The position numbers and the translations under genes are program-made. Source: Barthelona sp. PCE (Eukaryota). From it: DNA of 64,000 bases. Positions 17,708 to 62,248 of the stretch are shown here, piece after piece. Positions within the stretch are counted from its first letter, which is position 1; each line of letters starts with the position of its first letter. The stretch is from positions 186,001 through 250,000 of the forward strand of contig JAUFOR010000005.1 of assembly GCA_040285745.1 (NCBI GenBank), read 5' to 3'. The notes beneath the pieces are model-generated. The model had not been told where the DNA came from, searched no databases, and saw nothing but the letters and a program-made list of their open reading frames with translations.

Positions 17708-18096
17708 TAATCATGTAAATAATATTCCACATTTCTGAAAATTTTTCCTGCAAACTTGATTATATACGGAAGAGTCGTATGCTCTCCAGAGTCCATATTG
17801 TAAAGGCCGATAATAGACTCATTCAGATGCAGGTGCTTAGTGACGATCACCCAGTTGTGGCACGACATCAATACCTTTTCAGGATTTGCTTCGTTGATGA
17901 GTGATGACACGTCGTTGTTGAGCTATATGTCGATGAACGTGCCCCCTGTGCTCGAGTGCAGGGTAACTCTCCACGCACCTCCGTCAGACGGGGAGAGCAA
18001 GATATGAACGTGCTTGAACGTGCTTTTTGAAGCGTAATTGGGCGCTTCCCGGGCTATATCCGCGATGTTTCGTGCTTTCGATGCATTTCTGCTCAT
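17708..18096 (-). pseudogene. Pseudogene paralogue of the 808-2436 gene
   Basis: ATG at 18096 reads ...PNYASKSTFKHVHILLS (cf. PDYSSKSTFDGTEITLS); in-frame TAG at 17923-17925; then CHNWVIVTKHLHLNESIIGLYNMDSGEHTT (cf. CPYKWIILLEHQHQLDKNSIGVFNLETKEHKT). Confidence 0.75.
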
Positions 18097-18160
18097 AAAT
18101 TTCGAGCTGAAAGAAGTTATGAAAATTGTTCATTGTTTCCAGTATTCTCACCACATCCAC

Positions 18161-38238: not shown

Positions 38239-38345
38239 AGAAAATGGTTTAAAGTGCCCATCACCAAAATATTGGTGTGAAAAAAGAGAAAATTGGAGTT
38301 CAAGCGAATATAAACACAAACAATTTATTGATTACTATCATAACT

Positions 38346-40193
38346 TTATCTAACACGGCGTCTAAAGCCACCAAAAGAAGAGAATACTGATGAGATGTCG
38401 TAATTAGAAAGCACATCAATCATGCTTACAAACTCAGTTTTTCCACGAAGTTTTCCATCTTCAAACTTTATGATGCGTATAAAGACCTCAAGCCCTTTTG
38501 ACCATCGATGTTCAACCACAACACCCGGTTCAGGTGTATATAATGGACCTTTAGTGGCACGCATTTTTCTTCTAATCAATTCTTCATTATCAAAAATGTA
38601 AACACTTTTTCCGTACAACAGAACTCCTACATCAATGAAACAGGCATTATTATCACTGTGATCCACCTCAAAAACTCTAAAATCATCACTGTGCTCACTG
38701 TATTTCACAATGATGGAACGATTTAAACCTTTAAAAAATATTTCTTCAGGACAATAGGGATTATGAACATGATCACGAACTCGAATATCAAGCTGATGCT
38801 CCTTTGAATCAACTATCGCTCCAGTCTCAGAATCTAAAACATTCATAGAAAGATCACTCCCGTTTAGTATCCAACACACATCACCAACAATTTGTACATA
38901 CCTCACACGATGCTTACCTAATGTCTGACCGTTAACTATGACACCGAAATCCCTCTGTCTTCTGTATGAAACAGCGTAATGCCGACTGTTAAAGACGACA
39001 GTAATTCTTTGAGCATCATCCAGCTTAGGAAAACTTGTAGTCATTTTCTCATTGACGAACAACCTGCACATGCTTTGATCCATCGTCACATAGCCCACAT
39101 GCCACTGCCGTTCATCGATATTGTAAAACTCAAAAGCTCTTTGTAGCTTTTGATCCGCAAAAGCACTAGAAGGACTGCATATACCTAAAGAATGCTTATA
39201 ATAGTCAACAATCACTGGAAATTCTTGTTGCAAAACTGAAAATCTATCCTGAGGCATTGGTGCAGTATTCTTGTTCAATATAAACAAACAATCTGAATAA
39301 TGTTTGAAAACTTGAAAAAATGTGGTAACAAAGCTATCGTAATCGTAATGTACGTTATATACATTACCATCCAACAATAAAAAGTTCCTAGCCTTGCAAT
39401 AAATATGTGGAAAATCATCACTATCGAAAGGATGAGGAACAAAAACATCTAAAATTATAGCGACATCATTCATTGATTCTCTATGCATAATCTTTTCACA
39501 AGGTTTCCAGATAACATCTTCGTTATCAACTGAACATGTGTATAATTCATCGTCTCGTTCAAATAAAAAGCGATTATTTCCAGGGGTACGATCACATGCA
39601 ACTGCAACAAAACCGCTCAATGGATGATCTTTAATAAGCGTCGGTATTCCATTTATAAATACAAACACCATATTAATCTCGTAACCAGAGCCGTTGTGGT
39701 AAAATATATATGCAACATCATCCTGAACAAGAAATCTAAGAGCATGATTAAAGATATAAGTATAAATGACTTCTTTGTTATACAAATCATAGACATAAAA
39801 AGCTTTTTCGTGATTAGGAGCTGGGCCCGTTCTCAATAAAAATCTTCTATTCAACAGTTTTACCCTTCTGAATGATAGATGATATTCATTAACGATAAAA
39901 AATTCCCCCTCAAAATACTCAAAAACCTCAATCAAAGACCCCACATTGTTATTTTCGGTATCTGCGGTCTCCCTGAAGAAGAAATTAGGTTCCAACAATG
40001 TCGGTGTTAAAATTCCATATTCTCTACCCAAATCTTCATCTACTTCTGGACCATTAATGACTAATGTCTCGTTTTTATAAATAATACACACGTTCCTTGT
40101 GTTTAAATCTTCATTAGTAGAAGAAACGGCGAGATTATCTCCTACTGGGGTAAGTATGAAGTTTTTTGATACTTTGGAAACATTTCTTGGCAT
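38346..40193 (-). CDS. MP[RK]-family hypothetical protein (tandem paralogue)
   Basis: MPRNVSKVSKNF; same motifs as 36355-38238. Confidence 0.8.
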   Translation of the reverse strand: MPRNVSKVSKNFILTPVGDNLAVSSTNEDLNTRNVCIIYKNETLVINGPEVDEDLGREYGILTPTLLEPNFFFRETADTENNNVGSLIEVFEYFEGEFFIVNEYHLSFRRVKLLNRRFLLRTGPAPNHEKAFYVYDLYNKEVIYTYIFNHALRFLVQDDVAYIFYHNGSGYEINMVFVFINGIPTLIKDHPLSGFVAVACDRTPGNNRFLFERDDELYTCSVDNEDVIWKPCEKIMHRESMNDVAIILDVFVPHPFDSDDFPHIYCKARNFLLLDGNVYNVHYDYDSFVTTFFQVFKHYSDCLFILNKNTAPMPQDRFSVLQQEFPVIVDYYKHSLGICSPSSAFADQKLQRAFEFYNIDERQWHVGYVTMDQSMCRLFVNEKMTTSFPKLDDAQRITVVFNSRHYAVSYRRQRDFGVIVNGQTLGKHRVRYVQIVGDVCWILNGSDLSMNVLDSETGAIVDSKEHQLDIRVRDHVHNPYCPEEIFFKGLNRSIIVKYSEHSDDFRVFEVDHSDNNACFIDVGVLLYGKSVYIFDNEELIRRKMRATKGPLYTPEPGVVVEHRWSKGLEVFIRIIKFEDGKLRGKTEFVSMIDVLSNYDISSVFSSFGGFRRRVR

Positions 40194-41952: not shown

Positions 41953-43768
41953 TTAAAGATCAGAAGCCTTCCTCTTGCGATCCTTCTTAGGTGTCTTCTC
42001 CTTCTTCTTCTTCTTCTTCTTCTTCTTGGGAGTTTCACCATCGACTTCACCTTCCTTGTCCTTCTTCTTCTTTTTCTTCTTCTTCTTGGGTGTTTCACCT
42101 TCAACTTCGGCATCCTTATCCTTCTTTTTCTTCTTCTTCTTCTTTTTAGGAGTTTCAGCAATTGCTTCCATCTCATCTTCAGCCTTAGGTTCAGCCTTAG
42201 GTTCAGCCTTAGGTTCAGCCTTAGGTTCTTCCACAACAGGTACGGCTTCCATAACAAGATCTGCGTCTTCCTTATCAGAAACGACTTCAGTGGTAACCAT
42301 CTCAATCTCTTGTTCTTCTTCGTACTTCTGCAACTTGCGAATAACGTCCTTCATTACAACGTCAGCTTGACGAGGCTTCTTACCGGTGTTAAGGAAATCC
42401 ACACGATCCTGTGCGAGCTCAGCAAGGCCCTCACCGTAAATTCGGTTGGGTTTCTTAGCGAAGAAATCGTAGCGAGCAGCCTTAACGATCTGGTTAGCCA
42501 TGAAACGTGACATGCGCCCCTTATCCTTCTTGGAAACGGCAACAACATGAGGCTCGTTGTAGATGGTACCGTGCTTGGGAGTGGGACGCTTCTTCTTGAT
42601 AGCCTTGAAGAGAGCACCTTCAGCACCCAATATCTGTGCAGTGGAAGCAGGAAGTTTAGAAAGGTTACCGAGGGAACCAACCTTAGCAATCATACGAGCG
42701 CCTGTGAGCTCACCACCAACAGCAGAGATTGAAGGAGCAACTGTGTTCATCTTATCGCAGAGATACTCCTTATCGATATCCTTAAACGAGATGATGTCAA
42801 CGACAACCTCAGCAAACGTCATGCATGCCTCCAGGTCAACTTCGTTGTATGTGACACCCTTAGAAAAGGCAGCCTTCTGGTAAATATCCTCGACGACATC
42901 GTTGTCACCAACAATTGCGAGAATCTCGCTGAATCTTTCTTCGTTCTCCTTCTCTTCGACAAAGCGGGCACGGTCGTTGATAGCGAGCGTGAGCCTGGCG
43001 TACTGAAGAGGGTGTGTGACGATATCAGATAATTCAGGGAAACAGGCACCATACCACTCCTTGAGTCGCATAAGAGCTGTGTTGGTGTCCTTATCGAGCT
43101 GATCATATGATGAGATGGAATGAAGGATCATAGTTGATGAACGGTTAGGGTTGAATGACACAATAGAACGAGAATAACTGTGAGCAGAAGCAACATACGA
43201 TTCCTTCATAGATACTTTGTTGAGGTCACCCAGCAGCTTTCTGGAGTGAGTACGGAGACCACGCATGACCTGTAAAACAGATGAATCGGAACGTGTTCCG
43301 ATGTTAAAGTGCTCCGACAGTGTAAGCCCTATTTTTGAATCTTGGACCCCCAGAACATACTTCTTACGCTTCCTCTGAGCCTTTTCAAGTGGGAAAGCGG
43401 TTTCTATAAGAGATTGCAGTGCAGGAGTAACAGTAGTGCCGGATGCAAGAGCTTCGAGATTTTCCAATACTTCAGCAGGTGAGTTGAAAGGATAAAAGTG
43501 CTTGAGCTTGACTAATTCTGCGAAACGACCGATCTCATCACAAGCTTTCTGAAATTCTGGCAAATTATCGCTCAGTTCGTCAAAATTCTTGATCTCCCAA
43601 AGACTTAACCCCGAAGAGTTTTCAAAGAGTGCATATAAACGCTAAAAGTTAGTTAAAACATCGAGCAACACGTAACCTCTACATGACTTCCCCAAAGATT
43701 CAATTGCTTGTAGATCATAAGTACCTGAGCGCCAGGTAAGGTGGTTGTGCGAAAGTTTAATATACCAT
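41953..43768 (-). CDS. NOP56: Box C/D snoRNP protein NOP56 (exon 1 = ATG 43768-43766; exon 2 = 43641-41953)
   Basis: Spliced start M|RLYALFENSSG; HSYSR, DQLDKD.N..MRLKEWY..FPEL, PAST.QILGAE.ALF, TPKHG; KKE-rich tail. NOP58 not fully excluded. Confidence 0.88.
43642..43765 (-). other. 124-nt start-codon intron in NOP56
   Basis: ATG|GTATAT...ACTAACTTTTAG|CGT; frame matches exon 2. Confidence 0.85.
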
Positions 43769-46929: not shown

Positions 46930-48474
46930 ATGCCAAAAGTCACAGCACAAGTCAATAAACTCAACTGGACCCCTGATATTTTACCTGAAAGCACTTTGCT
47001 GGGCAAGTTTTCTTTCGGGTACGTTCAGCGTGTAACTGATGATGAGGTGTGTTATGATGTACCCCAGATCATCCCTATTCAAACTAAGACGCACTTTCAT
47101 GGTTCATACAACATAAAACGCATTTGTGGTGTTGAGAATCGCTTTATGTCTGTCACACAACCTTTGAAACACATGATCATGTTAGACGAGGAGGGAAACG
47201 ACTGTTCAGATGTTTTCATGTTATCAGAACCTAGTGAAGGTGTTTTTTATGATGATATTTTTGTACTTAACCCTTTTCATGGATTTGTTTTCCACGATGA
47301 GAACGTCTCCAAATTTGAAATTAAAGGTACAACCATCACGCTCACGCCTTACGATTTGACCCCTGAGGACCTTGTCTTTCTTCTTAATGGAGAAATGTTC
47401 TTCAAAGGTACAGATTCGTTTTCGTACGATTGCGAAAATTTTTCCTTTGAAATGAATGAATTGATTCATATACCGGAGCCAGGAACCAAAGGTGCACCTA
47501 TTCCACTCGCTAACATTAACTGTTACCTTGCTACCGATTTTAACCCACTTGAAAAGTTTCCTCTCATAAAGGAATTCGTTTTGTTGTATAATGATAGCGA
47601 AACAAAAGAGTTTGTTGTTCACGATCTGCTGCACCACCACCCTTCGTTTACTGAATTCCTTGAAGAAAACAGACAGCTCATTGATCTTAAACAGGTGAAT
47701 TTATTGGAGCTCAATGTCTACGCATCGACTGTACGTTTGATGTTCAATCTTTCCGATAAAAGCACCCTTGTCTTGAATATGATGCATGATATTATTGAGA
47801 TCCAGAGATTTGAAGAGGTGTTCTTTGTTTACACCAACCAATTAATGGCTAGTAATGTTTCGCTTCTTAAAGATCTCAAATTTTATACCGTAAACAAGAG
47901 TAAGAACGAAATGAACATATATGACGCAAGCGTGTACCACGTGCAAGGTCCTGTATTGCGAGATTTGACGAATTTCTATAGTGTGCATGATGGTATTGTT
48001 TATCTAACTGAGTATGGTCTCTTTTACTTATCCTTCGGGTCCAAAACAGTCCATTACCACCGCCACCCATGCTATAAATTCCATGACGGTGCTGTAGCCG
48101 AACCTAACAGCATGTTTTGTATGTTCAATCATTGTGATTTCAAGTATGCTCGTTTCGAAATGTATCGAGGTAATTGCACTGGTAGACAGCTTGACGGCAT
48201 GGTGCAGTGGCGCAGCAGGCCCAGGACACATAAAGCTCTCCAAGAAGCATTGAATGAGTTGGAGTACGAATATTCATTCAGAACGGGCCGTCTTGAGAAT
48301 CCAACATTTTCTGTGAACAGCGAGACTGGTGATGTTTCAATGTATAATTATGACGGAAACGGAGCTATTCGTGAGATAAGATGGAATTCAATATCAGGAA
48401 ATGCAAGTGAAAATGTCATTGTCCTTAAAGATTTCTTTGCAACCTGCCAATGGAACGATATTGAGTTACTTTAA
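46930..48474 (+). CDS. MP[RK]-family-like hypothetical protein
   Basis: MPKVTAQ start; C-terminal VIVLKDFFATCQW matches the family motif; otherwise highly diverged. Confidence 0.7.
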   Translation: MPKVTAQVNKLNWTPDILPESTLLGKFSFGYVQRVTDDEVCYDVPQIIPIQTKTHFHGSYNIKRICGVENRFMSVTQPLKHMIMLDEEGNDCSDVFMLSEPSEGVFYDDIFVLNPFHGFVFHDENVSKFEIKGTTITLTPYDLTPEDLVFLLNGEMFFKGTDSFSYDCENFSFEMNELIHIPEPGTKGAPIPLANINCYLATDFNPLEKFPLIKEFVLLYNDSETKEFVVHDLLHHHPSFTEFLEENRQLIDLKQVNLLELNVYASTVRLMFNLSDKSTLVLNMMHDIIEIQRFEEVFFVYTNQLMASNVSLLKDLKFYTVNKSKNEMNIYDASVYHVQGPVLRDLTNFYSVHDGIVYLTEYGLFYLSFGSKTVHYHRHPCYKFHDGAVAEPNSMFCMFNHCDFKYARFEMYRGNCTGRQLDGMVQWRSRPRTHKALQEALNELEYEYSFRTGRLENPTFSVNSETGDVSMYNYDGNGAIREIRWNSISGNASENVIVLKDFFATCQWNDIELL

Positions 48475-48492
48475 TATGAGATGTAGAAAACG

Positions 48493-50400
48493 TCACTTGT
48501 ATTTTTCAAAAGAGTTGAAGACTGAAACTTTGCAGTTCAAGAGGAAACGACGTATATCTATTGTTCTTTCAACGTCAGTAAATGTTCTATAATTTGAATT
48601 AAACATTAATATGTTCATTTTAACATTAAAATCAGTCATTTCTCTATGACAAGTGACCAAGACCCCAGGTTGTGGTGAAACAACAGTAAATTTTGTATTC
48701 TTCCCAACATGGGTACAGTTGTGATATGTTTTTGGTATTTCAACAGCAAATTGATCATTATTACAGTCAAAAAAATGTAAACTTCCATTGATAACAATTG
48801 CTCCCCGACCAACAAACATTGGAACGTGTTGACCCTCCTTTCTGAACTCAATAAGCTCAATGAAAGACTTTAAACCGTAATCGAAACGCATATATACTCG
48901 ATTTTGTCCAAGGCTTATCATAATCTCCTCCTGGCAATATGGATTGCACATGATCCTGAATATTCTCCCATTGACGTTGAACGATTCGAATATCTTAACT
49001 ATCCCTTCGTCATCCAATATAACAACCGAGAAATTGTTGTTGTTAAAGAAAAAAACAAAATTTCCGTTCAACTGTATGGCTTGTAAAATGCTCATATCCA
49101 TACTTACAATATATGCATCGTTGACAAATAATCTATATTTAGCTTCGCCTTCTTCATCAATATTGGGCTTCACATCAACCATAAACTTACAGTTGCACTT
49201 CTGAAATCCACCCTTTGGAAAGCATCTAAATTGCGAATCGCCCCAGTAGAGAAACTTTGAAACAGGTGACTCAACAACATAACAATTCAGCCACCTCCCA
49301 ATGCTACAGTCATAAAAATGGTCTACCCTCTTCAAAACACATCCTTTATACTTATTTGTTGGAATAAAAAACGTAACAGTACCCGTGTAAAAGTCCCACA
49401 GGGCACTGTTGGCTTCGAATTTAATGAAATTCAGCTTTTGCTGTAAGAAATTCAAGTATCTCCTCGAAGTACACGTTGTGTTTTCAATTGAAAACATGCC
49501 ACGTATATTATGTCTCATAAGAGGATAAAACAACGTCATACCATTAATATGGTCCATAGAATATATTTTGTTATTCAACTGCACAAAATTCCACTGTTTG
49601 CAACAAATCCCATTGTTAAACACAGGCATGCTGGCCATTTCGCACACATGAACTCCCTCAACCCTCACAACTGACTTGTAACACTTTTTGTAAAACTCAA
49701 TTTCTCTTCTGACCAGTTCACTAGATTGATAGAAAAACTTATCTCCGCTGCGAAATATCACCCTGTTATCACCAGGTGTCTTATCCAGGGAATGAAAAGA
49801 CTGTCCCATAAGAGGGTGATCATCTTCTAAAAAAGGGATGCAATCATCATCGAAAGAGAGGATATGGTGAATCTGTTTCGCGTTTGAATGGATTAAGTAG
49901 GTTAAGTTATCCTGTACAAGTAATGAATACACCTGATACCTACCGTAGTGAACTAATCTATCATAAAGCTGTAGTTCATACACCTGTCTCAATTCCATAT
50001 CAAATAAGCTCACAAAACCAGCCCCGCTTCCAAATATCCAATATCTCCTATTCAGAAGGTGCCCATCCATCAACTCATCGTCTTCGAATAAAAACTGATT
50101 GATGCAAGAAAACTCACCGTCATTAAACTCAAAAACTTCCACCCCAAATACAACGTCATCAAACTTCTCATAGCGATAAAATACACTTGGTTCCTGTATT
50201 GATGCCTGCAAGTTAGATGTTTCACAGTCTATATCATTGGGCAAACTGCTATCCGGACCAGCTACAATCCCATCATCACATTTAGTGACTATTTGAAACA
50301 AATTCTGGTTCAAAGAATCATCTGTGCTGAACATTACCAACCAGTCGCCGAATAAACTGTAGGAAATATCATCTCCGTGATGTTTAATCAGCCTTGGCAT
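48493..50400 (-). CDS. MP[RK]-family hypothetical protein
   Basis: MPRLIKH; EVFEFNDGEF, LLNRRY, DKTPGDN, CNPYC, SPQPGV, IDIRRFLLNC. Confidence 0.8.
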   Translation of the reverse strand: MPRLIKHHGDDISYSLFGDWLVMFSTDDSLNQNLFQIVTKCDDGIVAGPDSSLPNDIDCETSNLQASIQEPSVFYRYEKFDDVVFGVEVFEFNDGEFSCINQFLFEDDELMDGHLLNRRYWIFGSGAGFVSLFDMELRQVYELQLYDRLVHYGRYQVYSLLVQDNLTYLIHSNAKQIHHILSFDDDCIPFLEDDHPLMGQSFHSLDKTPGDNRVIFRSGDKFFYQSSELVRREIEFYKKCYKSVVRVEGVHVCEMASMPVFNNGICCKQWNFVQLNNKIYSMDHINGMTLFYPLMRHNIRGMFSIENTTCTSRRYLNFLQQKLNFIKFEANSALWDFYTGTVTFFIPTNKYKGCVLKRVDHFYDCSIGRWLNCYVVESPVSKFLYWGDSQFRCFPKGGFQKCNCKFMVDVKPNIDEEGEAKYRLFVNDAYIVSMDMSILQAIQLNGNFVFFFNNNNFSVVILDDEGIVKIFESFNVNGRIFRIMCNPYCQEEIMISLGQNRVYMRFDYGLKSFIELIEFRKEGQHVPMFVGRGAIVINGSLHFFDCNNDQFAVEIPKTYHNCTHVGKNTKFTVVSPQPGVLVTCHREMTDFNVKMNILMFNSNYRTFTDVERTIDIRRFLLNCKVSVFNSFEKYK

Positions 50401-50625
50401 AAAACAATCCTTTATAATATATGCAGATAATCTCCCTTAAATTCAAATCTAACGTTTTTCAACTGAAAATTACCCCTAAAATAATCGTGAAAAAGAAAAA
50501 ACACCAATGTTCCACTTTTTTACCTAACCTGACCATCTGCAATTCACAAGTATATATAGACAAACTAATTGATCAACATTATAATGTCAAAGAGTTGCTT
50601 TTCCAAAATACCTCCTTTCTATCAC

Positions 50626-52458
50626 ATGCCAAGAGTGACATCTTTGCAGACGAGTTATGGTCATATTTTTCCTATTACTGGGGGCAAAAGAATTGTTTTG
50701 AGCAATCATGAACCGATCAAGAAAAGAATTGCAATAAATCTGGGAGGTGCACTTGATGTTCCAAAAGACTTGGTGAAATCACTCACATGGACTTCCCTAT
50801 GCAATGAATATTACAGTAGAGGACAAGAACATTTCAATTTTCACTCAATTTCATATAATGGAGCTGTAGAAACAACTCCATGCGAGTATCCAATCCATGA
50901 ATGGGATTTATACTGCCCTGGGTTTACTAGAAATAGATTAGAGATAAGTGGAATGATTTTTTTTGACCAAAAAAATGAGACAGCCTTTGAGCCATTTCCC
51001 GAGCTTTCTAATCGTGATAATATGTACAACTATTCCAATTTTCTGTTTAGTTATACAGATGATATGTTAACGGTCGCCTTTTGTGATCCAAACTCAAAGC
51101 AGATTGGAAAACAGGTTTTTCCTGATATCTCACGGTTAGAGTTTCATAGTCGCCTATGCAACTGTCCATGCACTGATATATGGAGCGTAAATGGCAAAAC
51201 ATACCGTGCAGAGTTGGTGAACGGAATTATTGAACTGGATTTGATTCATAATAAGTCACTCCCAAGCAACGCTGATTCGTGTTATTATGACGGTTCAGGT
51301 TATTATTTCTCTGCCTTTGGGCAAGGAGTGTTTGCTCTAGTAGATGGTTCCATTATATTTGACATTGGAAGCAACAATGTGTTGGATTTCATAGGCACTA
51401 GTGAAGGAAATGTACTATGTCGTACGAAAGATCATTGTTTGCACCAGTTTTCTGTTGAATTTGTTACAGAACCAATGTTTGAACTGGCTGTTAATGAGAA
51501 ATTGAACTGCACATGTCATACTCCAGTTTTACACATTGATATGTTCGATACAAAGGTTCTTCTTGACATTTTTGGTTCTGGGGACACATTTTATCTTATA
51601 TATAAATATCAAGGAAAAATGAACACAATCCACACCGCTAGTGTTGATGATGAAGGTGTTCTACCATCAATTTTTATGTATAGGGAGGAAAGTGGAATAT
51701 ACTATGTTACAGACAGCCACTTTAATCAATTATACAAAGTATCTTCCATTATTGATTGGACAATTTGTGAATTTTCGACAGAACGAGCAGTATGGGTAAA
51801 CAATAATAGACTGTATATGTCGAACAAGTCAGATGAAAAAATTCTAATAATGGAATCAGATGATGATAACATTGAAGATGTCCAATTAGTTAACGATGTA
51901 GTATGGTTGTTCACAGACTCAAGCAAAATATATTTCATTGAGATTAATAGTAATAATTTCGCAACCCTTGAGTTAGAATTAGACTGGTGGTGTAGCACTG
52001 TTAATTGTTTTAATAGTAATATAAATATTTCAGAGGTAGCAGTAGTTGATGAGTTTGGATTGGATATGGATGATGAGGTGCTTAAGGTGATATTTTACAA
52101 AGACAATTCACTTCATGTATGTGATTGGAACTATGATAATACGAGGGGAAATATATTATTTTTAAACGAAAACACGTGGATTGTTGACAATTTTTTGTTT
52201 AAATTTGATTTTGAATCTGAAACTGTCATTCAAATAGGAACTATCTACATAGGTGTTGAACGCTATACTCAATTTATACTGCGAAAAAATGTTCTTTGCA
52301 CACTTCAACCCGAAACAAGAGATTACAGCATCTTCTATCGTACGTTTGAATGGATTCCGTCATCAGAGGATTTTGTTGTTAAGGATAATTTTATAAATCT
52401 GTTGGAGTTTTTCAAAAATGCAAAGCACGCCCATTATGATACCTACATCCATGTTTGA
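50626..52458 (+). CDS. MP[RK]-family hypothetical protein
   Basis: ATG at 50626 (MPRVTSL); C-terminal INLLEFFKNA. Confidence 0.75.
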   Translation: MPRVTSLQTSYGHIFPITGGKRIVLSNHEPIKKRIAINLGGALDVPKDLVKSLTWTSLCNEYYSRGQEHFNFHSISYNGAVETTPCEYPIHEWDLYCPGFTRNRLEISGMIFFDQKNETAFEPFPELSNRDNMYNYSNFLFSYTDDMLTVAFCDPNSKQIGKQVFPDISRLEFHSRLCNCPCTDIWSVNGKTYRAELVNGIIELDLIHNKSLPSNADSCYYDGSGYYFSAFGQGVFALVDGSIIFDIGSNNVLDFIGTSEGNVLCRTKDHCLHQFSVEFVTEPMFELAVNEKLNCTCHTPVLHIDMFDTKVLLDIFGSGDTFYLIYKYQGKMNTIHTASVDDEGVLPSIFMYREESGIYYVTDSHFNQLYKVSSIIDWTICEFSTERAVWVNNNRLYMSNKSDEKILIMESDDDNIEDVQLVNDVVWLFTDSSKIYFIEINSNNFATLELELDWWCSTVNCFNSNINISEVAVVDEFGLDMDDEVLKVIFYKDNSLHVCDWNYDNTRGNILFLNENTWIVDNFLFKFDFESETVIQIGTIYIGVERYTQFILRKNVLCTLQPETRDYSIFYRTFEWIPSSEDFVVKDNFINLLEFFKNAKHAHYDTYIHV

Positions 52459-52527
52459 CTAAATCACAGCTTGATCCGATATTGAAACACGCATGCTTTG
52501 CAACGTTGGGGTAAGTTCCTAAGATCG

Positions 52528-52822
52528 TGACTTCACAAGGGCTGAGATCTCTCGATACATGCATGTTTACTGACAGATATCCAGTTGGATGGCGTGAATA
52601 ACTTCCTAAGCTCGAGGTCGGGTAATTGAGTTCCCACCCCATAAAAAATAGTAAAAAAGAGAAATCCGGAATGTACGATAAAGGACGTAATTCGGACAGC
52701 ACATTCATGAGTCACAGATTCACTCTGCCATGAGTTCCGTCAACCACATGCTTCCATCATTCAACAACTCTGCCATGAGTTCCGTCAACCACATGCTTCC
52801 ATCATTCAACATTCAACAAAAA
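52528..52822 (-). repeat. Single inverted copy of the 295-bp repeat unit
   Basis: Reverse complement of the unit arrayed at 57102-59764; carries the CCCTTGTG variant of the last array unit. Confidence 0.95.
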
Positions 52823-52976
52823 AATATACCTGGACGAGGAATCGAACCTAGAATAAGTGGATTCATTAGAAAAAGGTGGAATTTTCTGCTATGAGTCTTT
52901 TCGAGAGGAGAAATTCTCCTTTAAAAACTAGGTACAGGTACTTTTAATAGTAAGTTTAATAAGTAATTATTAAAAA

Positions 52977-53049
52977 CTTCCCCACGGGGAATCGAACCCC
53001 GGTCTCCAGAGTGAGAATCTGGGATCATAAACCACTAAACGATGGAGAA
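52977..53049 (-). tRNA. tRNA-Glu (anticodon CTC)
   Basis: Reverse complement identical to 56875-56947. Confidence 0.93.
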
Positions 53050-53586
53050 TTATTTTGACCAGAAATTGATGTTAAGAAGTATAAAAATCAATCCTGTAAA
53101 TTTTGGGTTGTCAGATCTTCGTTCTCCATCAATACCTTCGAATATTGACTAACTATCGCACATACACGGTTTTCAGAGTAATTAAGGGTCAAACATTCGT
53201 TATCTAATCAATTTAAAGAAATTAAAAAATAAATAAAAAATAATAGGAAAATGCTAATACAATTTTTTAAAATTGCATGCAAAATATTTATCCGCTAATA
53301 TTTTTATTCGTAGCATTGTATCTTTTACTGAAAGCCTAAGATGGGTGTTCACATCTTTTAATGGAAGAGCTAAAGAGCGAATAGCATCGTAGTTGAATCG
53401 ATACCAAGTGAAAAAGTAAATAATATGAAGGTGTTTACAAACAAGCAATTTATTTATCATTTTACCACTTTTGGGCACGTGTCAAACATATATTCATCTA
53501 ATATATTCAACATTAGTACAACTCAAATAATATTTTGAATCATACAATGCAAAGAACTGTAATTACCAAAAAAAATATTTCAATAA

Positions 53587-55466
53587 CTATAAAGATTTAG
53601 TTGAAAAGAAAAAGTCAGAAAGAACTGTAAAATGCGAATGTTGCAAGAAATCAAGCAATTTCACACAGAAAGGTTCAAAGTTAAATGAATCACTACTGCT
53701 ATTGTAACTAATGTAATGTCCATTGATTTGAAGGTTGGTAACTACTCTATCTATCCGAATCGCACCATGTTCTCTGTTGCATATCCAAGCACTGTTTTCC
53801 TCATAAGGTAATGTTGCCGACATAAGTTCATAACCATCATCAAGAGTACAAGTAAAAACTTGATCATCAATAATAAGTGTATTTTCATCAATGAACTGCA
53901 TACAGTTCGGTTTTTTTTGGAGTTCTAATGTATATTCAGTTACATTTCCATTCTCGAAATCAAAAGATATGAAGTGAACAATTCCTTCATTGTTATACCC
54001 AATAAAAGTATTAGGAGCCCATGGATTAATCGTCATTTCGCTAATTTTTGTATTTTCAAAGGTTATTGCCTTGCTAAAACCGCCAATTGAATCAAAAAGA
54101 AAAGCAGTAACAATACCTGACATGGACACAACATATCCAACATCTCCTTCAATATACATTTTAGATGTTCGCCTGTGCTCAAACATGGAACCATTTTTAA
54201 AAATGATACAGCGTCTTCCATCAATTAAGAGGTGTTTTTCACTTGCCACTGCATCTGCAAACCATGCATCGTTTTCTAAATGTGTTAAATACGTACTATA
54301 CAATATTTTTTGCGTATATAGATCATATACATCCACCATTTCAAATTTAACTCTGTACTGAACAAAAACCTTTTCACCAACAAAAACTAAATTTTTGATC
54401 TTTTCGTAGCATCCTTTAAAAGCCATCACTGCATTTGTCTTACAAAACGAATTAACAAATATGTACATATTACTTGTTGCAAAACAGGGTAATTTCATTT
54501 CGGAAGGTTTATACAACTCGGCGTAATCACCAATTGTAAACAAAGTTGATGGTTGAGCTTTTGTGACATAAATACGGTGCATAGCACCATTTGTATACAT
54601 AAAAAGCTCCTCATCTTTTGACATCAGTCTTTCTATAGTTGTGCACGTGGAGTCGGTGTGAATACCAATACTCGAAACGGTGTACATACACTTCATTAAA
54701 GGAGAAATTAAACAAAGTACAGAATCAGTGTATATTGCACTAACACTGCAATAACAAATATCATAAGGTAATTTTTCCAAATATAAATACTCGTCTGCCA
54801 AAAAAGGAACTCCTTCATTGTCTGCAATGAAAAATGCGTGTTTGTTATATATAATAACATCTTTATATACAGTATGACCATAGATACGCATTGAAATTGT
54901 TTGATGACTGTTTGGATTGAATATTCTATTTAAAACTTTGTGCTCCATTATGCAACTCTTGAGTAAACCTGCTTCATTAAGATATACTCCGATAAGATTG
55001 TTTCCATCTATACAAACAGTAAAGTAACAGTCACGTACTCTACCAGAACTAGAATTCACACAGCGAAATATCCCAACATCTTCTTCGCTGCAGTTTTGAA
55101 GAGAAATCGGTACGTCTCCTCTGCACTCGGTGACTAAATACTGATCTCCGATGATATATTCAATTTCTTTTTCGCCTTCATACTTAATATCATGGCTGAA
55201 AAAGAACTCACCATCAAATAGTTCAAAAAAACTAATTTTCCATCATTAAAATCGTAGAACAGCGATGAACAACGACACTGCTTTGGTAGGAAAGGTATTT
55301 TCTTAGCATTGGCTTCACTATGAACGATAATAGGAGGTGGTGGAATCATTCCTAGCTGTTCTTGCTGTATGATGGAAAATTGAGTCCCAAATCTTGGCAA
55401 ATAGGATGTGTTCGTAACTAAATTGCCCTGCTTGGTTATAAAATCTGCTTGAATGAAACGAGGCAT
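53587..55466 (-). CDS. MP[RK]-family gene split by a frameshift in a 7-nt homopolymer (55225-55231)
   Basis: MPRFIQ... ORF; adding one T gives KLVFFELFDGEF (family motif), continuing into 53587-55059, which ends VKLLDFLQHS. Consensus error or pseudogene. Confidence 0.7.
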
Positions 55467-56874
55467 GTGAAGAAAGATGGAAGATGCAATACATCTTATT
55501 CAGCAAATGAATCTATTGCTTACTTGCTGATTAGCCAACATATGTTATCAAAAAGGATTCAAAAAGTAATAAACTCTTTGCATAAACCCAATTTACAATT
55601 GAATACTTTTCTTTCAAAAAAAGGGTTTTAGAACAATTCTCAGCACAGCACTCAAGGGATCTGCCAGTTCCCGAACAATTATACTGAAGTAGATTTATAT
55701 GTCACCATTCCTAACTTCGAAGCAAAAATCCAACCAATTGAAATGCCACTATTTTTTCAGATGTGTGACTTCCAAGCTTTGAAAGTGGTAACTCAGCACT
55801 ATATCTGAACTTAAATCTGTTAAAAATTCTGTTTATAACCGTAAACATAGATGAGAAAATGCTACGAATAAAAATATTAGCGGATAAATATTTTGCATGC
55901 AATTTTAAAAAATTGTATTAGCATTTTCCTATTATTTTTTATTTATTTTTTAATTTCTTTAAATTGATTAGATAACGAATGTTTGATCCTTAATTACTCT
56001 GAAAACTGTAGTTGATGGCAATCGGAATCTTGATGCACCCGAAACCTAGATGACATACACTGATAGTGAGAGTTAAAGAATAATCCTAGCTAAGTTACTC
56101 GGACTCGAGTAACTGCTTTTCGATTTCTTTCCTGAATTCAAAAAATTAAAAAAGACAAAAAAACCAGAAAGTTAAATTTCAAGCATAATCTTCGAAACTT
56201 TTTGTTGTTTTTCCGTGAGCTTGGAAAAAACTACTCCGCACACATTCTGTGCTGGATTATCCAAGAAAGTCTTTCATCATCTTCTGCATAAATTATATCC
56301 TAGTGCAGAAAGAACGCAGGTAAGTTTTATCAAGAAATTTTACAAAAAATTTCATCATATTTTCTCAATAGCGAGACAGTTAGCCACTAATCATGGCTCT
56401 ACGGGTACGTAGCGTGCGGCGGTATCTTGATTGATCCGTACCCGTCCTGTCTAACGGTTCGTTCTGTCTGCCCTCCCAACATGCAGGCTGTCACTTCAGT
56501 AAACCATCCAAGGTGTAGGATAGAGGATAACGTGTATGTGCGATAGTTAGTCAATATTCGAAGGTATTCGTAGGAGGTTGTAAATTTACTTCGGAGTTAG
56601 ACACTTGTACGGGAGTTGCGAGCTCCCTCGAGTGCTGTGCTTGCACTGAGAATTGTTCTAGAGCCCTTTTTTTTAAAATAAAAGGGGAGAAAGAAATGAT
56701 GTAAGTACTCACAGAGTACAAGAGGGAAGACCGCGTGTCTACTCCTCAGTAGATTTACTCCTACGAAATAGCGTGTTATTCACAAGCGTGCCTGATGGAG
56801 AACGAAGATCTGACAACCCAAAATTTACAGGATTGATTTTTATACTTCTTAACATCAATTTCTGGTCAAAATAA

Positions 56875-56947
56875 TTCTCCATCGTTTAGTGGTTTATGAT
56901 CCCAGATTCTCACTCTGGAGACCGGGGTTCGATTCCCCGTGGGGAAG
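56875..56947 (+). tRNA. tRNA-Glu (anticodon CTC)
   Basis: Cloverleaf: TTCTCCA/TGGGGAA acceptor, CCAGA-TTCTCAC-TCTGG anticodon arm, CGGGG-TTCGATT-CCCCG T arm; 73 nt, followed by TTTTT. Confidence 0.95.
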
Positions 56948-57072
56948 TTTTTAATAATTACTTATTAAACTTACTATTAAAAGTACCTGTACCTAGTTTT
57001 TAAAGGAGAATTTCTCCTCTCGAAAAGACTCATAGCAGAAAATTCCACCTTTTTCTAATGAATCCACTTATT

Positions 57073-57097
57073 CTAGGTTCGATTCCTCGTCCAGGTA
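57073..57097 (+). other. Orphan tRNA 3' fragment / Pol III B-box
   Basis: CTAGGTTCGATTCCTCGTCCAGGTA followed by a T-run; mirrored at 52827-52851. Confidence 0.55.
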
Positions 57098-57101
57098 TAT
57101 T

Positions 57102-59764
57102 TTTTTGTTGAATGTTGAATGATGGAAGCATGTGGTTGACGGAACTCATGGCAGAGTTGTTGAATGATGGAAGCATGTGGTTGACGGAACTCATGGCAGA
57201 GTGAATCTGTGACTCATGAATGTGCTGTCCGAATTACGTCCTTTATCGTACATTCCGGATTTCTCTTTTTTACTATTTTTTATGGGGTGGGAACTCAATT
57301 ACCCGACCTCGAGCTTAGGAAGTTATTCACGCCATCCAACTGGATATCTGTCAGTAAACATGCATGTATCGAGAGATCTCAGCCCCTGTGAAGTCATTTT
57401 TGTTGAATGTTGAATGATGGAAGCATGTGGTTGACGGAACTCATGGCAGAGTTGTTGAATGATGGAAGCATGTGGTTGACGGAACTCATGGCAGAGTGAA
57501 TCTGTGACTCATGAATGTGCTGTCCGAATTACGTCCTTTATCGTACATTCCGGATTTCTCTTTTTTACTATTTTTTATGGGGTGGGAACTCAATTACCCG
57601 ACCTCGAGCTTAGGAAGTTATTCACGCCATCCAACTGGATATCTGTCAGTAAACATGCATGTATCGAGAGATCTCAGCCCCTGTGAAGTCATTTTTGTTG
57701 AATGTTGAATGATGGAAGCATGTGGTTGACGGAACTCATGGCAGAGTTGTTGAATGATGGAAGCATGTGGTTGACGGAACTCATGGCAGAGTGAATCTGT
57801 GACTCATGAATGTGCTGTCCGAATTACGTCCTTTATCGTACATTCCGATTTCTCTTTTTTACTACTATTTTTTTTTTATGGGGTGGGAACTCAATTACCC
57901 GACCTCGAGCTTAGGAAGTTATTCACGCCATCCAACTGGATATCTGTCAGTAAACATGCATGTATCGAGAGATCTCAGCCCCTGTGAAGTCATTTTTGTT
58001 GAATGTTGAATGATGGAAGCATGTGGTTGACGGAACTCATGGCAGAGTTGTTGAATGATGGAAGCATGTGGTTGACGGAACTCATGGCAGAGTGAATCTG
58101 TGACTCATGAATGTGCTGTCCGAATTACGTCCTTTATCGTACATTCCGGATTTATCTTTTTTACTATTTTTTATGGGGTGGGAACTCAATTACCCGACCT
58201 CGAGCTTAGGAAGTTATTCACGCCATCCAACTGGATATCTGTCAGTAAACATGCATGTATCGAGAGATCTCAGCCCCTGTGAAGTCATTTTTGTTGAATG
58301 TTGAATGATGGAAGCATGTGGTTGACGGAACTCATGGCAGAGTTGTTGAATGATGGAAGCATGTGGTTGACGGAACTCATGGCAGAGTGAATCTGTGACT
58401 CATGAATGTGCTGTCCGAATTACGTCCTTTATCGTACATTCCGGATTTCTCTTTTTTACTATTTTTTATGGGGTGGGAACTCAATTACCCGACCTCGAGC
58501 TTAGGAAGTTATTCACGCCATCCAACTGGATATCTGTCAGTAAACATGCATGTATCGAGAGATCTCAGCCCCTGTGAAGTCATTTTTGTTGAATGTTGAA
58601 TGATGGAAGCATGTGGTTGACGGAACTCATGGCAGAGTTGTTGAATGATGGAAGCATGTGGTTGACGGAACTCATGGCAGAGTGAATCTGTGACTCATGA
58701 ATGTGCTGTCCGAATTACGTCCTTTATCGTACATTCCGGATTTCTCTTTTTACTATTTTTTATGGGGTGGGAACTCAATTACCCGACCTCGAGCTTAGGA
58801 AGTTATTCACGCCATCCAACTGGATATCTGTCAGTAAACATGCATGTATCGAGAGATCTCAGCCCCTGTGAAGTCATTTTTGTTGAATGTTGAATGATGG
58901 AAGCATGTGGTTGACGGAACTCATGGCAGAGTTGTTGAATGATGGAAGCATGTGGTTGACGGAACTCATGGCAGAGTGAATCTGTGACTCATGAATGTGC
59001 TGTCCGAATTACGTCCTTTATCGTACATTCCGGATTTATCTTTTTTTTTATTTTTTTTTATGGGGTGGGAACTCAATTACCCGACCTCGAGCTTAGGAAG
59101 TTATTCACGCCATCCAACTGGATATCTGTCAGTAAACATGCATGTATCGAGAGATCTCAGCCCCTGTGAAGTCATTTTTGTTGAATGTTGAATGATGGAA
59201 GCATGTGGTTGACGGAACTCATGGCAGAGTTGTTGAATGATGGAAGCATGTGGTTGACGGAACTCATGGCAGAGTGAATCTGTGACTCATGAATGTGCTG
59301 TCCGAATTACGTCCTTTATCGTACATTCCGGATTTCTCTTTTTTACTATTTTTTATGGGGTGGGAACTCAATTACCCGACCTCGAGCTTAGGAAGTTATT
59401 CACGCCATCCAACTGGATATCTGTCAGTAAACATGCATGTATCGAGAGATCTCAGCCCCTGTGAAGTCATTTTTGTTGAATGTTGAATGATGGAAGCATG
59501 TGGTTGACGGAACTCATGGCAGAGTTGTTGAATGATGGAAGCATGTGGTTGACGGAACTCATGGCAGAGTGAATCTGTGACTCATGAATGTGCTGTCCGA
59601 ATTACGTCCTTTATCGTACATTCCGGATTTATCTTTTTTACTATTTTTTATGGGGTGGGAACTCAATTACCCGACCTCGAGCTTAGGAACTTATTCACGC
59701 CATCCAACTAGATATCTGTCAGTAAACATGCATGTATCGAGAGATCTCAGCCCTTGTGAAGTCA
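57102..59764 (+). repeat. Tandem array of nine ~295-bp units, each starting with a duplicated 45-mer
   Basis: Periods 295, 295, 301, 295, 295, 294, 298, 295; differences lie almost only in the T-rich tract; 45-mer TGTTGAATGATGGAAGCATGTGGTTGACGGAACTCATGGCAGAGT occurs twice per unit. Confidence 0.97.
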
Positions 59765-59803
59765 TCTAATGTAAAGGTAATGGAGCTATTCATTATGACA
59801 ATA

Positions 59804-61927
59804 CTAATGATAATCTGGCATATGGTACTCAACTATGGATGCCTCGGCCAGGAACGATGGAAGGTGGAACGTTTCCACTGTAGGATTCATCGATTCCGGG
59901 TCTTCCTCAACATTGTAAGTTTTCAAAATCATTGTCTTGGTCTCTTCTTCATACGTCATATCTTGAACAGTGTTGTTGGATAAATTATGAATGTGTTTTA
60001 TCTGCATATAGGGAGGATTGGGTAAATTGTTGTTTGTGTAAAATATTGTTTTGATAGCATCATCTTCAACCTGTACTTTAACGATACCATCCCCCACGTG
60101 TATGTATGAATCTCCCACAAAATTTCGGAAACTATTGCCTTTCCTTATTTCATCACATTCAAAAAGGAGAACATGCTCTAAAAATCTTCCTGCTGACCAA
60201 TCTAAACAGTGTAAATGTTGTGTTTCTGCTTCTTCACTGTATGTATGTACAATAAATAGCTGGTGATCAGGTGTTTCTACCAATGGACGAGGGTTAAAGA
60301 AAACATCACCTGTATATGCATTTTCAAAAATAATGTGCTTTTGAACCTCTACTTCATACCCGTTGACATTGAGCTGAAAGAAATGGATTGCTTCTTCACA
60401 TACAATGCACGCTGAGTCACCATTAATTGAACCATGAACACTTATGACTTCAATATTCGGGGGAAGCTCTAAAATCATCTTTCTTCCCAAATACACTAAG
60501 CATGTATCCTCACTATAGTCAACATTAACGGGCAACCCTTGAATGAAACCAAAGTTTTCGGTGCCGCAATGAGGCAAAATGGTTGTGATGGGTTTGGATT
60601 CTGACCCTATCCAGTGTATTTTAGCACAATATGCAGTACCTGTTTCACAATGCTTTTGTGTCATTACAAAAAAATCATTTTCACTAACTGATAGGAAGCT
60701 GAAATCTTGTTTTATGGAATTGTATTCATTCACATCCCTTAGAATAACAAGCCTTTTTTCTTTTGAAAAAAAGTAATATTTTATAGTAACATTACGTACT
60801 TCCGCTATTCCATCAAAGAAGATTTTTTTTGGTTTCAGATAACTTAAACGTATCACCTCATTATCAACTGTTCTGAATTTAATTGGGCCAAAACGTCCTG
60901 TTTTGTTATCAGTACCAAACAAAACACAACCCTCATCATGAAAGGAGTTTTCAAACAAGTCCATATGTCTCAAATTATTGCAAAGTATATTACTGAATCT
61001 CATTTCACCCTCTGAAATCGTCAATTCATCGTTTTCGATATGCACTACCACACATTTTGAATAAATGAATGCCATTGACAAAACATCTTGAGTGAGTGTC
61101 AATAAGACAAAATTCGAGTTTTTTTTGACATACACGCCTTTAAGCTGCGGAAACCTTTCTGTTAAGTTAACGCAGTTCCTCTGAGCATCAAATATTGTCA
61201 ATTCATTAATTTTTTGATCGCGAAGCTGGACTGAGCAAACACAAACCGAGTTGTAACACCTGAAGTATTTTGAATAGAAATTATATAACTGCTTAATATC
61301 AGGTTCATGTGCCTCGTCCATGTCATTGACAGAAAAATTGTAATGCCAGATGGTATCATCTTGGCACTTCCTTAACATAATGTAGTTTGGCTCTTTTGTT
61401 TGAACTAGACTATATTCTCTTTGAACCAGTCTATATTCTCCAAGACATCTATATTCATTCGTAAGCACATTTAATATGTAACATTTATGAATAAATAGCT
61501 TGCTGGTCACGGTTTCCCTAATGGTGAATAGTAAATGGTTTTCATCCATTGGAACTATTCTATTTGAAAGGCTTCTTAAGCTAATCCTCTCAAATGGGAA
61601 GGGTATTCTTCTGCTTGTGTGTTCATCACTTGTGATATCATTAAATAATAAGATATCAAGATGGGTTAAAATACGATTTTCATTACAAATTTTTTTAATG
61701 ATCATAAAACCTGTTCCAGCTTTTAATTTAGATGTGTAATTGAGAGGATTACACGTGTTTTCTACATACCCGACGAATCCCTTGCCTTCAAAAACACTTT
61801 CAATGAGGCTAATATCAGTGTTTTCTCTTGAATTAAGCAATCTTAGGCCCTGACCCTCAAATATTAGTTGCCCTTCAGGATAAGCGTTGATAATAGGATC
61901 TTCCTCAAAATTTCGTACCCTAGACAT
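59804..61927 (-). CDS. MP[RK]-family hypothetical protein; paralogue of 18161-20314
   Basis: ATG at 61927 (MSRVRNFEED); collinear with 18161-20314; stops 6 codons earlier (TAG where the paralogue has GAG). Confidence 0.8.
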   Translation of the reverse strand: MSRVRNFEEDPIINAYPEGQLIFEGQGLRLLNSRENTDISLIESVFEGKGFVGYVENTCNPLNYTSKLKAGTGFMIIKKICNENRILTHLDILLFNDITSDEHTSRRIPFPFERISLRSLSNRIVPMDENHLLFTIRETVTSKLFIHKCYILNVLTNEYRCLGEYRLVQREYSLVQTKEPNYIMLRKCQDDTIWHYNFSVNDMDEAHEPDIKQLYNFYSKYFRCYNSVCVCSVQLRDQKINELTIFDAQRNCVNLTERFPQLKGVYVKKNSNFVLLTLTQDVLSMAFIYSKCVVVHIENDELTISEGEMRFSNILCNNLRHMDLFENSFHDEGCVLFGTDNKTGRFGPIKFRTVDNEVIRLSYLKPKKIFFDGIAEVRNVTIKYYFFSKEKRLVILRDVNEYNSIKQDFSFLSVSENDFFVMTQKHCETGTAYCAKIHWIGSESKPITTILPHCGTENFGFIQGLPVNVDYSEDTCLVYLGRKMILELPPNIEVISVHGSINGDSACIVCEEAIHFFQLNVNGYEVEVQKHIIFENAYTGDVFFNPRPLVETPDHQLFIVHTYSEEAETQHLHCLDWSAGRFLEHVLLFECDEIRKGNSFRNFVGDSYIHVGDGIVKVQVEDDAIKTIFYTNNNLPNPPYMQIKHIHNLSNNTVQDMTYEEETKTMILKTYNVEEDPESMNPTVETFHLPSFLAEASIVEYHMPDYH

Positions 61928-62248
61928 GTATACGCGATGAAGTAGGTGATTATTGAGATAGCACATTTGAAAAAACCATTACTTATACGTGGCATATATG
62001 ATGGGTAAGATGATATTGTATTCATTTGATCATTGGTTGATGAATCGCCAGAAATGTATGGTTTATTATGGGGTATTATCCACATTGTGGATGTGGCTCG
62101 CAGCAGCCGTATTTTGGGCCGCACTCCATGGAACAAGCATAAACATTCAGTAAAAATTACTGTATACGTTGCAGGCCACTAAACCGCTTCAATACTTTTG
62201 TTTTCATATTTTCAGCCTAATTCTCATCAGTTTTGCCTGATTCACACG

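Follow-up and report, generated by a model that had tools for sequence, protein, structure and literature searches.

Inverted tRNA-Glu(CUC)/satellite arms around a predicted beta-propeller gene in the genome of Barthelona sp. PCE

Anatomy of the inverted arms

Barthelona sp. PCE is a free-living metamonad, whose genome of 10.2 Mb in 8 contigs, with 5064 predicted proteins, is the smallest reported among free-living eukaryotes (PMC11316075). We analysed a 64-kb stretch of this genome (positions 186,001 to 250,000 of contig JAUFOR010000005.1, assembly GCA_040285745.1; hereafter the window, in whose coordinates all positions are given), in which two inverted arms, each carrying a glutamate transfer RNA gene, tRNA-Glu(CUC), and a satellite with a unit of 295 base pairs (bp), bracket one protein-coding gene and end close to two others. 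The window is gene-dense, with about 80% of it in open reading frames (ORFs) and a median intergenic gap of 163 bp; the two biggest of its 33 intergenic gaps (1128 and 4337 bp) are those on either side of the bracketed gene. An earlier reading of the sequence (the original prediction) had described tRNA-Glu/satellite modules in inverted order around this gene, and this order was borne out, with tRNA genes at 52977-53049 (minus strand) and 56875-56947 (plus strand) and with a single satellite unit in the left arm and nine in the right. The components, apart from the protein-coding genes, are as follows (nt, nucleotides; GC, guanine plus cytosine content; T5, T7 and T8, runs of five, seven and eight T):

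52528..52822, minus strand: single satellite unit of 295 bp, the outermost part of the left arm, with the minus-strand terminus CCCTTGTGAAGTCA
52823..52976, minus strand: left linker of 154 bp, with a fragment resembling a tRNA 3' end, the B-box 11-mer at 52838-52848 and then a T run
52977..53049, minus strand: left tRNA-Glu(CUC) gene, directly followed by a T5 run
53050..53317, minus strand: inner left arm, with 82 bp of upstream sequence of the tRNA gene, a block of 38 bp and an AT-rich block of 152 bp (22% GC)
55612..55697, minus strand: copy 1 of an element of about 97 nt, ending in ...GAGAATTGTTCTAAAACCC and T7, 75% identical to copy 2
55858..56009, plus strand: AT-rich block at the inner end of the right arm, 152 bp, 20% GC
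56010..56530, plus strand: 521-bp block present in the right arm only, with a junction microhomology of 2-3 nt (YGT)
56531..56792, plus strand: the shared 38-bp block followed by a 224-bp block present in the right arm only, which holds copy 2 of the 97-nt element
56581..56677, plus strand: copy 2 of the 97-nt element, within the 224-bp block, ending in GAGAATTGTTCTAGAGCCC plus T8
56793..56874, plus strand: right tRNA upstream region, 82 bp, the start of the 604-bp near-identical stretch
56875..56947, plus strand: right tRNA-Glu(CUC) gene, directly followed by a T5 run
56948..57101, plus strand: right linker of 154 bp, with a fragment resembling a tRNA 3' end, the B-box 11-mer at 57076-57086 and a T7 run
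57102..59764, plus strand: array of nine satellite units with lengths of 295, 295, 301, 295, 295, 294, 298, 295 and 295 bp

Alignment of the two arms resolved three blocks of inverted homology. In the outer block (52528-53131 and 56793-57396) 603 of 604 bp were identical, confirming the near-identity noted in the original prediction, and the sole mismatch was T at 52538 against C at 57386. Further inward, a second block of 38 bp (53131-53168 and 56531-56568) had no mismatch, and the innermost block of 152 bp (53166-53317 and 55858-56009), with a GC of 20-22%, had two. Overall, 791 of the 794 aligned bases were equal (about 99.6%). The left arm is 790 bp long (52528-53317), and the right arm measures 1539 bp (55858-57396) before its eight additional satellite units. 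The difference is made by the 521-bp (56010-56530) and 224-bp (56569-56792) blocks, which have no counterpart in the left arm and were not described in the original prediction; the junctions of the left arm show microhomology of 1-3 nt.

Both arms end in satellite units, one on the left and nine in tandem on the right, and the outer termini are identical, reading ...CCCTTGTGAAGTCA at both ends. They lie 69 bp beyond the stop codon of the left neighbouring gene (which ends at 52458) and 39 bp beyond that of the right one (59804-59806), in agreement with the distances of about 70 and 40 bp given earlier. The spacer between the arms is unique and gene-bearing, with an unremarkable GC of 33% for the central domain, and both flanks are unique and run into unique genes for many kb. 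No target-site duplication was found around the whole structure, whose flanks (ending in AAGATCG on the left and beginning with TCTAATG on the right) share no direct or inverted repeat, or around either module taken singly. A Pfam scan of the ORFs inside the structure detected no domain and no transposase, reverse-transcriptase or integrase signal. The original prediction had likewise seen neither a transposase nor a target-site duplication. No further copy of any part of the module was found elsewhere in the 64-kb window. A degenerate partial unit was also sought in the flanks (52380-52527 and 59766-59910) and rejected, since the alignment scores of 22 and 19 compared with a mean of about 18 and maxima of 28 and 24 for shuffled sequences.

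Satellite, tRNA genes and the 97-nt element

The satellite is the only long-period tandem array of the window (no other tandem repeat has a period above 60 bp), and Tandem Repeats Finder reported it with a period of 295 bp, 9.0 copies, 98% matches and limits of 57102-59765. Each unit contains a perfect 45-bp subrepeat twice and, without its T run, reads TG...CA. Comparison of all ten units (the left unit and R1 to R9 of the array) revealed that the first 155 nt are invariant and that nearly all variation falls within the T-rich stretch. The left unit is the same as R1, R2, R5 and R8 save for position 285, which is T in the left unit and in R9 and C in R1-R8; the unit ends read CCCTTG only in these two outermost units and CCCCTG in the eight internal ends. 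R9 additionally has three private changes. No fold signal for a structured RNA was obtained for the unit (z = +0.57 and +1.46), and a 5S rRNA, snRNA or snoRNA was rejected, as Rfam returned only noise (sR30 at 13.7 bits, with a gathering score of 38). A coding role was not supported for an ORF of 61-67 amino acids (aa) found in eight of the nine array units: it has no Pfam match, and in our reading of the unit alignment its substitutions were few and mostly non-synonymous.

The tRNA-Glu(CUC) pair comprises the only two tRNA genes of the 64 kb (Rfam, 50.5 bits compared with a gathering score of 29). Both copies have a complete cloverleaf and are transcribed away from the centre of the structure. 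The array begins 154 bp downstream of the right tRNA gene, and the tRNA thus lies outside the repeated unit, once per arm. The B-box 11-mer GGTTCGATTCC has four matches in the window, two inside the tRNA genes and two exactly 150 bp downstream of those, a number reached in none of 100 shuffles. The downstream B-box fragment resembles a tRNA T-arm, the 3' acceptor strand and a T7 run, and nothing more. A second tRNA or tRNA pseudogene at this fragment or in the unit was rejected, as Rfam (E≤10) recovered only the two tRNA-Glu genes and ARAGORN at lowered thresholds yielded only poor intron-containing models. The net functional content of the structure is two tRNA-Glu(CUC) genes and a non-coding satellite.

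The two copies of the 97-nt element are mutually inverted and both end in GAGAATTGTTCTARARCCC followed by T7-8. Copy 1 sits 146 bp upstream of the start of the bracketed gene. Of this element the left arm retains only the first ~20 nt or so, which are contained in the 38-bp block. The element may represent a promoter, terminator or small-RNA relic. Folding lent no support to a structured RNA in it or in the GC-richer segment 56370-56535 (z = -1.18, +0.62, +0.06 and -0.86). The 521-bp block gave no Rfam match, no fold signal and no coding remnant of the propeller families described below. It contains an intron-like motif at 56300-56375 (CAG/GTAAGT...CAATAG/, where / marks the putative boundaries), across which no ORF of at least 60 aa with an ATG start was found.

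Predicted beta-propeller genes in and around the structure

The three genes at the structure belong to two families of proteins with a conserved start of the MPR type, here termed A and B:

50623..52458, plus strand: left flanking gene, a distant family-B member, with an ORF that opens at 50584 and a likely start (MPRV) at 50623
53587..55466, minus strand: bracketed gene, a distant family-B member of about 627 codons, starting MPRF...
59804..61927, minus strand: right flanking gene, which encodes a 707-aa protein of family A in the ORF 59804-61966

Within the window, BLASTP grouped ORFs 18065-20314 and 59804-61966 (62% identical to each other) as family A and ORFs 36355, 38346 and 48493 (22-30% identical) as family B, and found no partner for ORFs 50584, 53587 and 46930. 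With the right flanking gene as the query, at least 44 proteins were assigned to family A at E≤0.001 among 4869 candidates. Two of the 44 come from the window, and the other 42 are all named as Barthelona sp. PCE proteins, distributed over at least six contigs. The start MPR[VI]RK is present in 36 of the 44, and the C-terminus ...EYHMPDYHEH is conserved. Family A thus appears, from these sequence comparisons, to be large and Barthelona-specific, all its named members being Barthelona proteins without known function.

For family B, a profile of the window's three BLASTP-grouped genes was used to search a library of 1.84 billion proteins that carries no organism names, and 50 representatives were obtained at E≤0.001 (48 of them at E≤1e-10), three of which are the window's own. 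Among the 50, 24 start with MPR and 33 with MP. A hidden Markov model (HMM) was built from 42 of the 50 representatives (those of at least 500 aa; P0213, a protein of 1061 aa with ten short matched stretches, was left out). This HMM recognised the bracketed gene (E=1.6e-14, 46.3 bits) and the left flanking gene (E=4.8e-7, 21.6 bits), whereas the best of 600 shuffled controls scored 9.4 bits. The left flanking gene also has a 58-aa patch that is 43% identical to the family-A member P0145 (BLASTP, E=5e-4). ORF 46930, with an MPKV start, was not significant against the HMM of either family. The window members of the two families are located at 18161-20311 (plus), 36355-40193 (minus), 48493-50400 (minus), 50623-52458 (plus), 53587-55466 (minus) and 59804-61927 (minus), with lengths of 600-720 aa. 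Together, families A and B comprise at least 90 proteins or representative clusters, compared with the reported proteome of 5064.

Pfam assigned no family to six of the window's MPR-type genes (the bracketed gene being analysed as three pieces) or to the seventh, ORF 18065-20314, and the Pfam WD40 sequence profile did not match the window's MPR-type genes. Nevertheless, structural models suggested a fold class. The AlphaFold2 model of family B was all-beta, with a predicted local distance difference test score (pLDDT) of 86.4 and a predicted template modelling (TM) score (pTM) of 0.80; that of family A was also all-beta but weaker (pLDDT 69.5, pTM 0.47). Foldseek matched the family B model to tandem WD proteins (E down to 6e-12, TM-scores ≤0.35), and PDB chains of this tandem WD/beta-propeller class were also matched by the family A model; with TM-scores of at most 0.35 these matches indicate the fold class only. 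Both families are therefore predicted, on the basis of the models, to consist of tandem beta-propeller proteins. The original prediction had treated the neighbours of the modules as one family. The genes fall into two sequence families, however, and a single one was rejected, as neither BLASTP nor profile-profile comparison with hhalign linked A to B. That A and B form one superfamily is plausible.

Only the profile HMM places the bracketed gene in a family, and no close paralogue of it was found. Its coding sequence is broken into two ORFs in adjacent frames, 55134-55466 and 53587-54948, which are one base out of register; the shift lies in an A7 run at 55225-55231, back to which the downstream frame stays open. 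Either the gene has truly been pseudogenised by this shift, or a Nanopore error persists in the assembly. The right flanking gene carries a P2S change, so that it starts with MSRV rather than MPRV, and has a premature TAG, 18 nt ahead of the stop position of its paralogue at 18161-20311 (interval 59786-59806). Its identity to its 43 family-A relatives is 41-67%, and none is higher. A search for decayed family genes in the non-coding parts (tblastn with 64 proteins) yielded nothing below E=0.27 among the matches listed. Five consecutive genes (46930-61927) have an MPR-type start, and family membership was established for four of them.

The remainder of the window encodes ordinary eukaryotic proteins, recognised by Pfam as V-ATPase subunit a, a Nop-domain protein, ALG10, a PTEN-like phosphatase and a WD40 protein. 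The ORF for V-ATPase subunit a (34153-36315) encodes 720 aa, whereas the NCBI protein PCE1_002578, 100% identical across the ORF, has 804 aa, implying an upstream exon and hence an intron in an intron-poor genome. Two tandem paralogues with a Peptidase_M28 domain (3749-6199 and 6251-8704; about 816 aa each) lie 51 bp apart. Repeats of 60 bp and 12 bp at 41994-42228 fall inside the minus-strand ORF of the Nop-domain protein (41953-43266), near its 3' end, and would therefore lie in the C-terminal tail, which is rich in charged residues according to our reading of the repeat consensus.

Among the Barthelona papers listed in a literature search, no title or abstract concerns tRNA genes, repeats or centromeres. 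In the genome paper (PMC11316075), the word 'tRNA' does not occur in the main text, and the three supplementary spreadsheets have no entry on tRNA genes, repeats, satellites or centromeres.

Origin of the structure

Most likely, the structure is a product of local recombination, and its status as a mobile element is not proven. Five features favour a local palindrome over a transposon: the match between the arms, the patchwork character of the left arm, the unique coding spacer, the lack of a target-site duplication and a transposase, and the divergence of the neighbouring genes. More specifically, we consider a local inverted duplication, or an ectopic repair copy, of a tRNA-Glu cassette together with its satellite to be on balance the probable origin. 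As the 521-bp and 224-bp blocks are missing from the left arm, which retains only the first ~20 nt of the 97-nt element, this arm would be a derived, deleted copy, and the longer right arm would be the original, with the order AT-rich block, 521-bp block, 97-nt element, tRNA-Glu(CUC), truncated tRNA 3' end (B box and T run) and 295-bp unit. The left arm would then be a patchwork inverted copy of three right-arm pieces joined at short microhomologies, and the most economical mechanism would be repair or replication with template switches that copied these pieces in inverted orientation. In a variant of this scheme, ectopic gene conversion could have started in a pre-existing inverted 295-bp unit and run inward. 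The arms would be of recent origin, or else conversion between them would have maintained their similarity. Such conversion would stop short of the last ~11 bp at each edge, which could account for the T variant shared by both outermost units. The 295-bp unit would have been amplified to nine copies on the right side by unequal exchange or slippage.

Some observations weigh against this reading. On its outer side the inverted homology ends within 0-1 bp of the place where the tandem array ends, and in the same phase, a coincidence that a random duplication breakpoint would give about 1% of the time. This points to the 295-bp unit as a discrete entity, for instance a dispersed repeat or the end of an element, and a local origin must assume as much. 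In addition, one locus was examined, and a purely local origin fails if the module proves to be dispersed. Finally, the copy number of the array and the insertions and deletions (indels) in its T runs may include Nanopore assembly errors (assembly as described in PMC11316075).

Two further suggestions of the original prediction, that the module amplifies members of the gene family and that it resembles the tRNA arrays of Entamoeba, were not borne out by this locus. While the arms are about 99.6% identical, the family-A paralogues reach at most 67% and the bracketed gene is linked to its family by the HMM only, which argues, on this local evidence, against recent gene amplification by the module; judged from these identities, the paralogues are far older than the arms. 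As five consecutive genes are of the MPR type, anything placed there adjoins such genes, and the adjacency itself carries little weight. It is very doubtful that the module is a dispersed, tRNA-carrying foldback cassette that prefers sites between MPR propeller genes and drives the inversion and ectopic exchange that diversify them. The Entamoeba arrays and our locus do share a physical link of tRNA genes to tandem repeats in a protist genome. In Entamoeba, however, the tRNA genes are described as lying inside the repeated unit with short tandem repeats between them (PMC2652664), whereas here the tRNA lies 154 bp outside the array and the unit contains none.

Sex-chromosome palindromes and organelle inverted repeats are inverted duplications homogenised by arm-to-arm conversion. 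Our structure resembles such palindromic duplications in its near-identical inverted arms with a unique spacer, in an arm identity far above that of local paralogues and in the position of its variants at the arm edges. It differs from them in the very small size of its arms (0.8-1.5 kb and the satellite in addition), of which one has two large deletions and which are made of a tRNA gene and a satellite; conversion is suggested here indirectly, by the variant shared by the edge units.

A different origin has to be considered if the structure, or the 295-bp unit, is a non-autonomous mobile element. It could be a foldback-type element with the bracketed gene as a passenger, or a discrete unit that lands downstream of tRNA genes, such as a solo long terminal repeat or a repeat resembling a miniature inverted-repeat transposable element or a short interspersed element (SINE). 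Drosophila FB is a foldback-type transposon with internally repetitive inverted ends. Other foldback-like elements with such ends are known, namely Galileo (PMC3573991) and Tetris, the latter described as a source of satellite DNA (PMC4079207). Like these, our structure has inverted arms with unequal numbers of tandem repeats (one and nine) and sharp identical termini, which moreover coincide with a unit boundary. The foldback-like architecture and the recombinational origin are what stands of the foldback-type or recombination cassette proposed originally. However, a target-site duplication and a transposase are both missing, a single locus is known in the window, the unit is as long as 295 bp, the arms carry a predicted functional tRNA gene and the loop contains a host gene without a close paralogue, which shows no sign of having been recently carried or copied.

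For a discrete unit, the position of the array 154 bp downstream of a tRNA gene is suggestive, as a region about 100 bp downstream of tRNA genes is a landing zone of elements in the compact genomes of Dictyostelium (PMC5006619). As with TRE3, Skipper-2 and Ty3 (PMC5006619), extra DNA is found within about 150 bp downstream of a tRNA, by a B box, in a gene-dense genome. The TG...CA ends of the unit without its T run also fit, and the repetitive share of 4.46% reported for the Barthelona genome (PMC11316075) means that dispersed repeats exist. In contrast to these retroelements, the unit is tandemly arrayed, without a reverse transcriptase or integrase signal, a poly(A) tail or a target-site duplication, for the whole structure or either module, and no second copy exists in the 64 kb. 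A tRNA-derived SINE is further contradicted by the complete tRNA cloverleaf and by the T5 terminator directly after it, which excludes a SINE-type read-through; no continuous head-to-body transcript is expected. Taken together, we regard a mobile origin as unlikely, although worth keeping in view.

The locus could also have a chromosomal function, either as a chromatin boundary or as a regional centromere like that of fission yeast in miniature. The satellite would then be heterochromatin, and the tRNA-Glu genes with their extra B boxes would bind TFIIIC as barriers flanking the central domain. In Schizosaccharomyces, the centromere core is described as flanked by inverted repeats, with tRNA genes that separate the central domain from the outer repeats and act as boundaries (PMC6538654). 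The mirrored order of satellite, B box, tRNA, inverted repeat and centre follows this plan, with the tRNA genes symmetrically placed between the centre and the outer tandem repeats, and the two largest non-coding gaps and the only long-period array of the window are found here. Yet the structure is 10-50 times smaller, and its centre, of just 2.5 kb and with an unremarkable GC, is not gene-free but filled by a gene of ~627 codons with one homopolymer shift. Moreover, the outer repeats are strongly asymmetric (one and nine units), and 4.46% of 10.2 Mb (PMC11316075) is far more than 3 kb, so that larger repeat regions must exist elsewhere. This interpretation therefore appears very improbable.

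About as improbable, in our estimate, is an artefact, in which chimeric palindromic reads or mis-assembled repeats in a 2017-era Nanopore assembly would have created the inverted repeat or the array. The genome was assembled with ABruijn from Albacore-called MinION R9.5 reads and polished with Nanopolish and Unicycler (PMC11316075), and the variation between units is almost wholly in T runs, as the shift in the bracketed gene is in an A7 run. However, palindromes from chimeric reads would mirror everything, the centre included, whereas here the mirror is broken by three substitutions and two large indels around a unique, coding centre, and the flanks continue for many kb into unique genes. For the inverted repeat itself an artefact is thus unlikely, while the number of units and the T-run indels may still be affected.

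In a genome so small, a largely non-coding island of 7 kb stands out. The more solid by-product of its analysis is the description of two big families of predicted propeller proteins with a conserved MPR start and without a Pfam match. If the 295-bp unit turns out to be dispersed, or to occur once per chromosome, it may mark a mobile element or a centromere, neither of which has been described in this lineage. If the cassette interpretation were true, the smallest known free-living eukaryotic genome would contain a built-in recombination device for fast-evolving families. Should the structure be no more than a local palindrome, it would illustrate on a small scale how rearrangements in fast-evolving gene clusters are seeded by tRNA loci and satellites.

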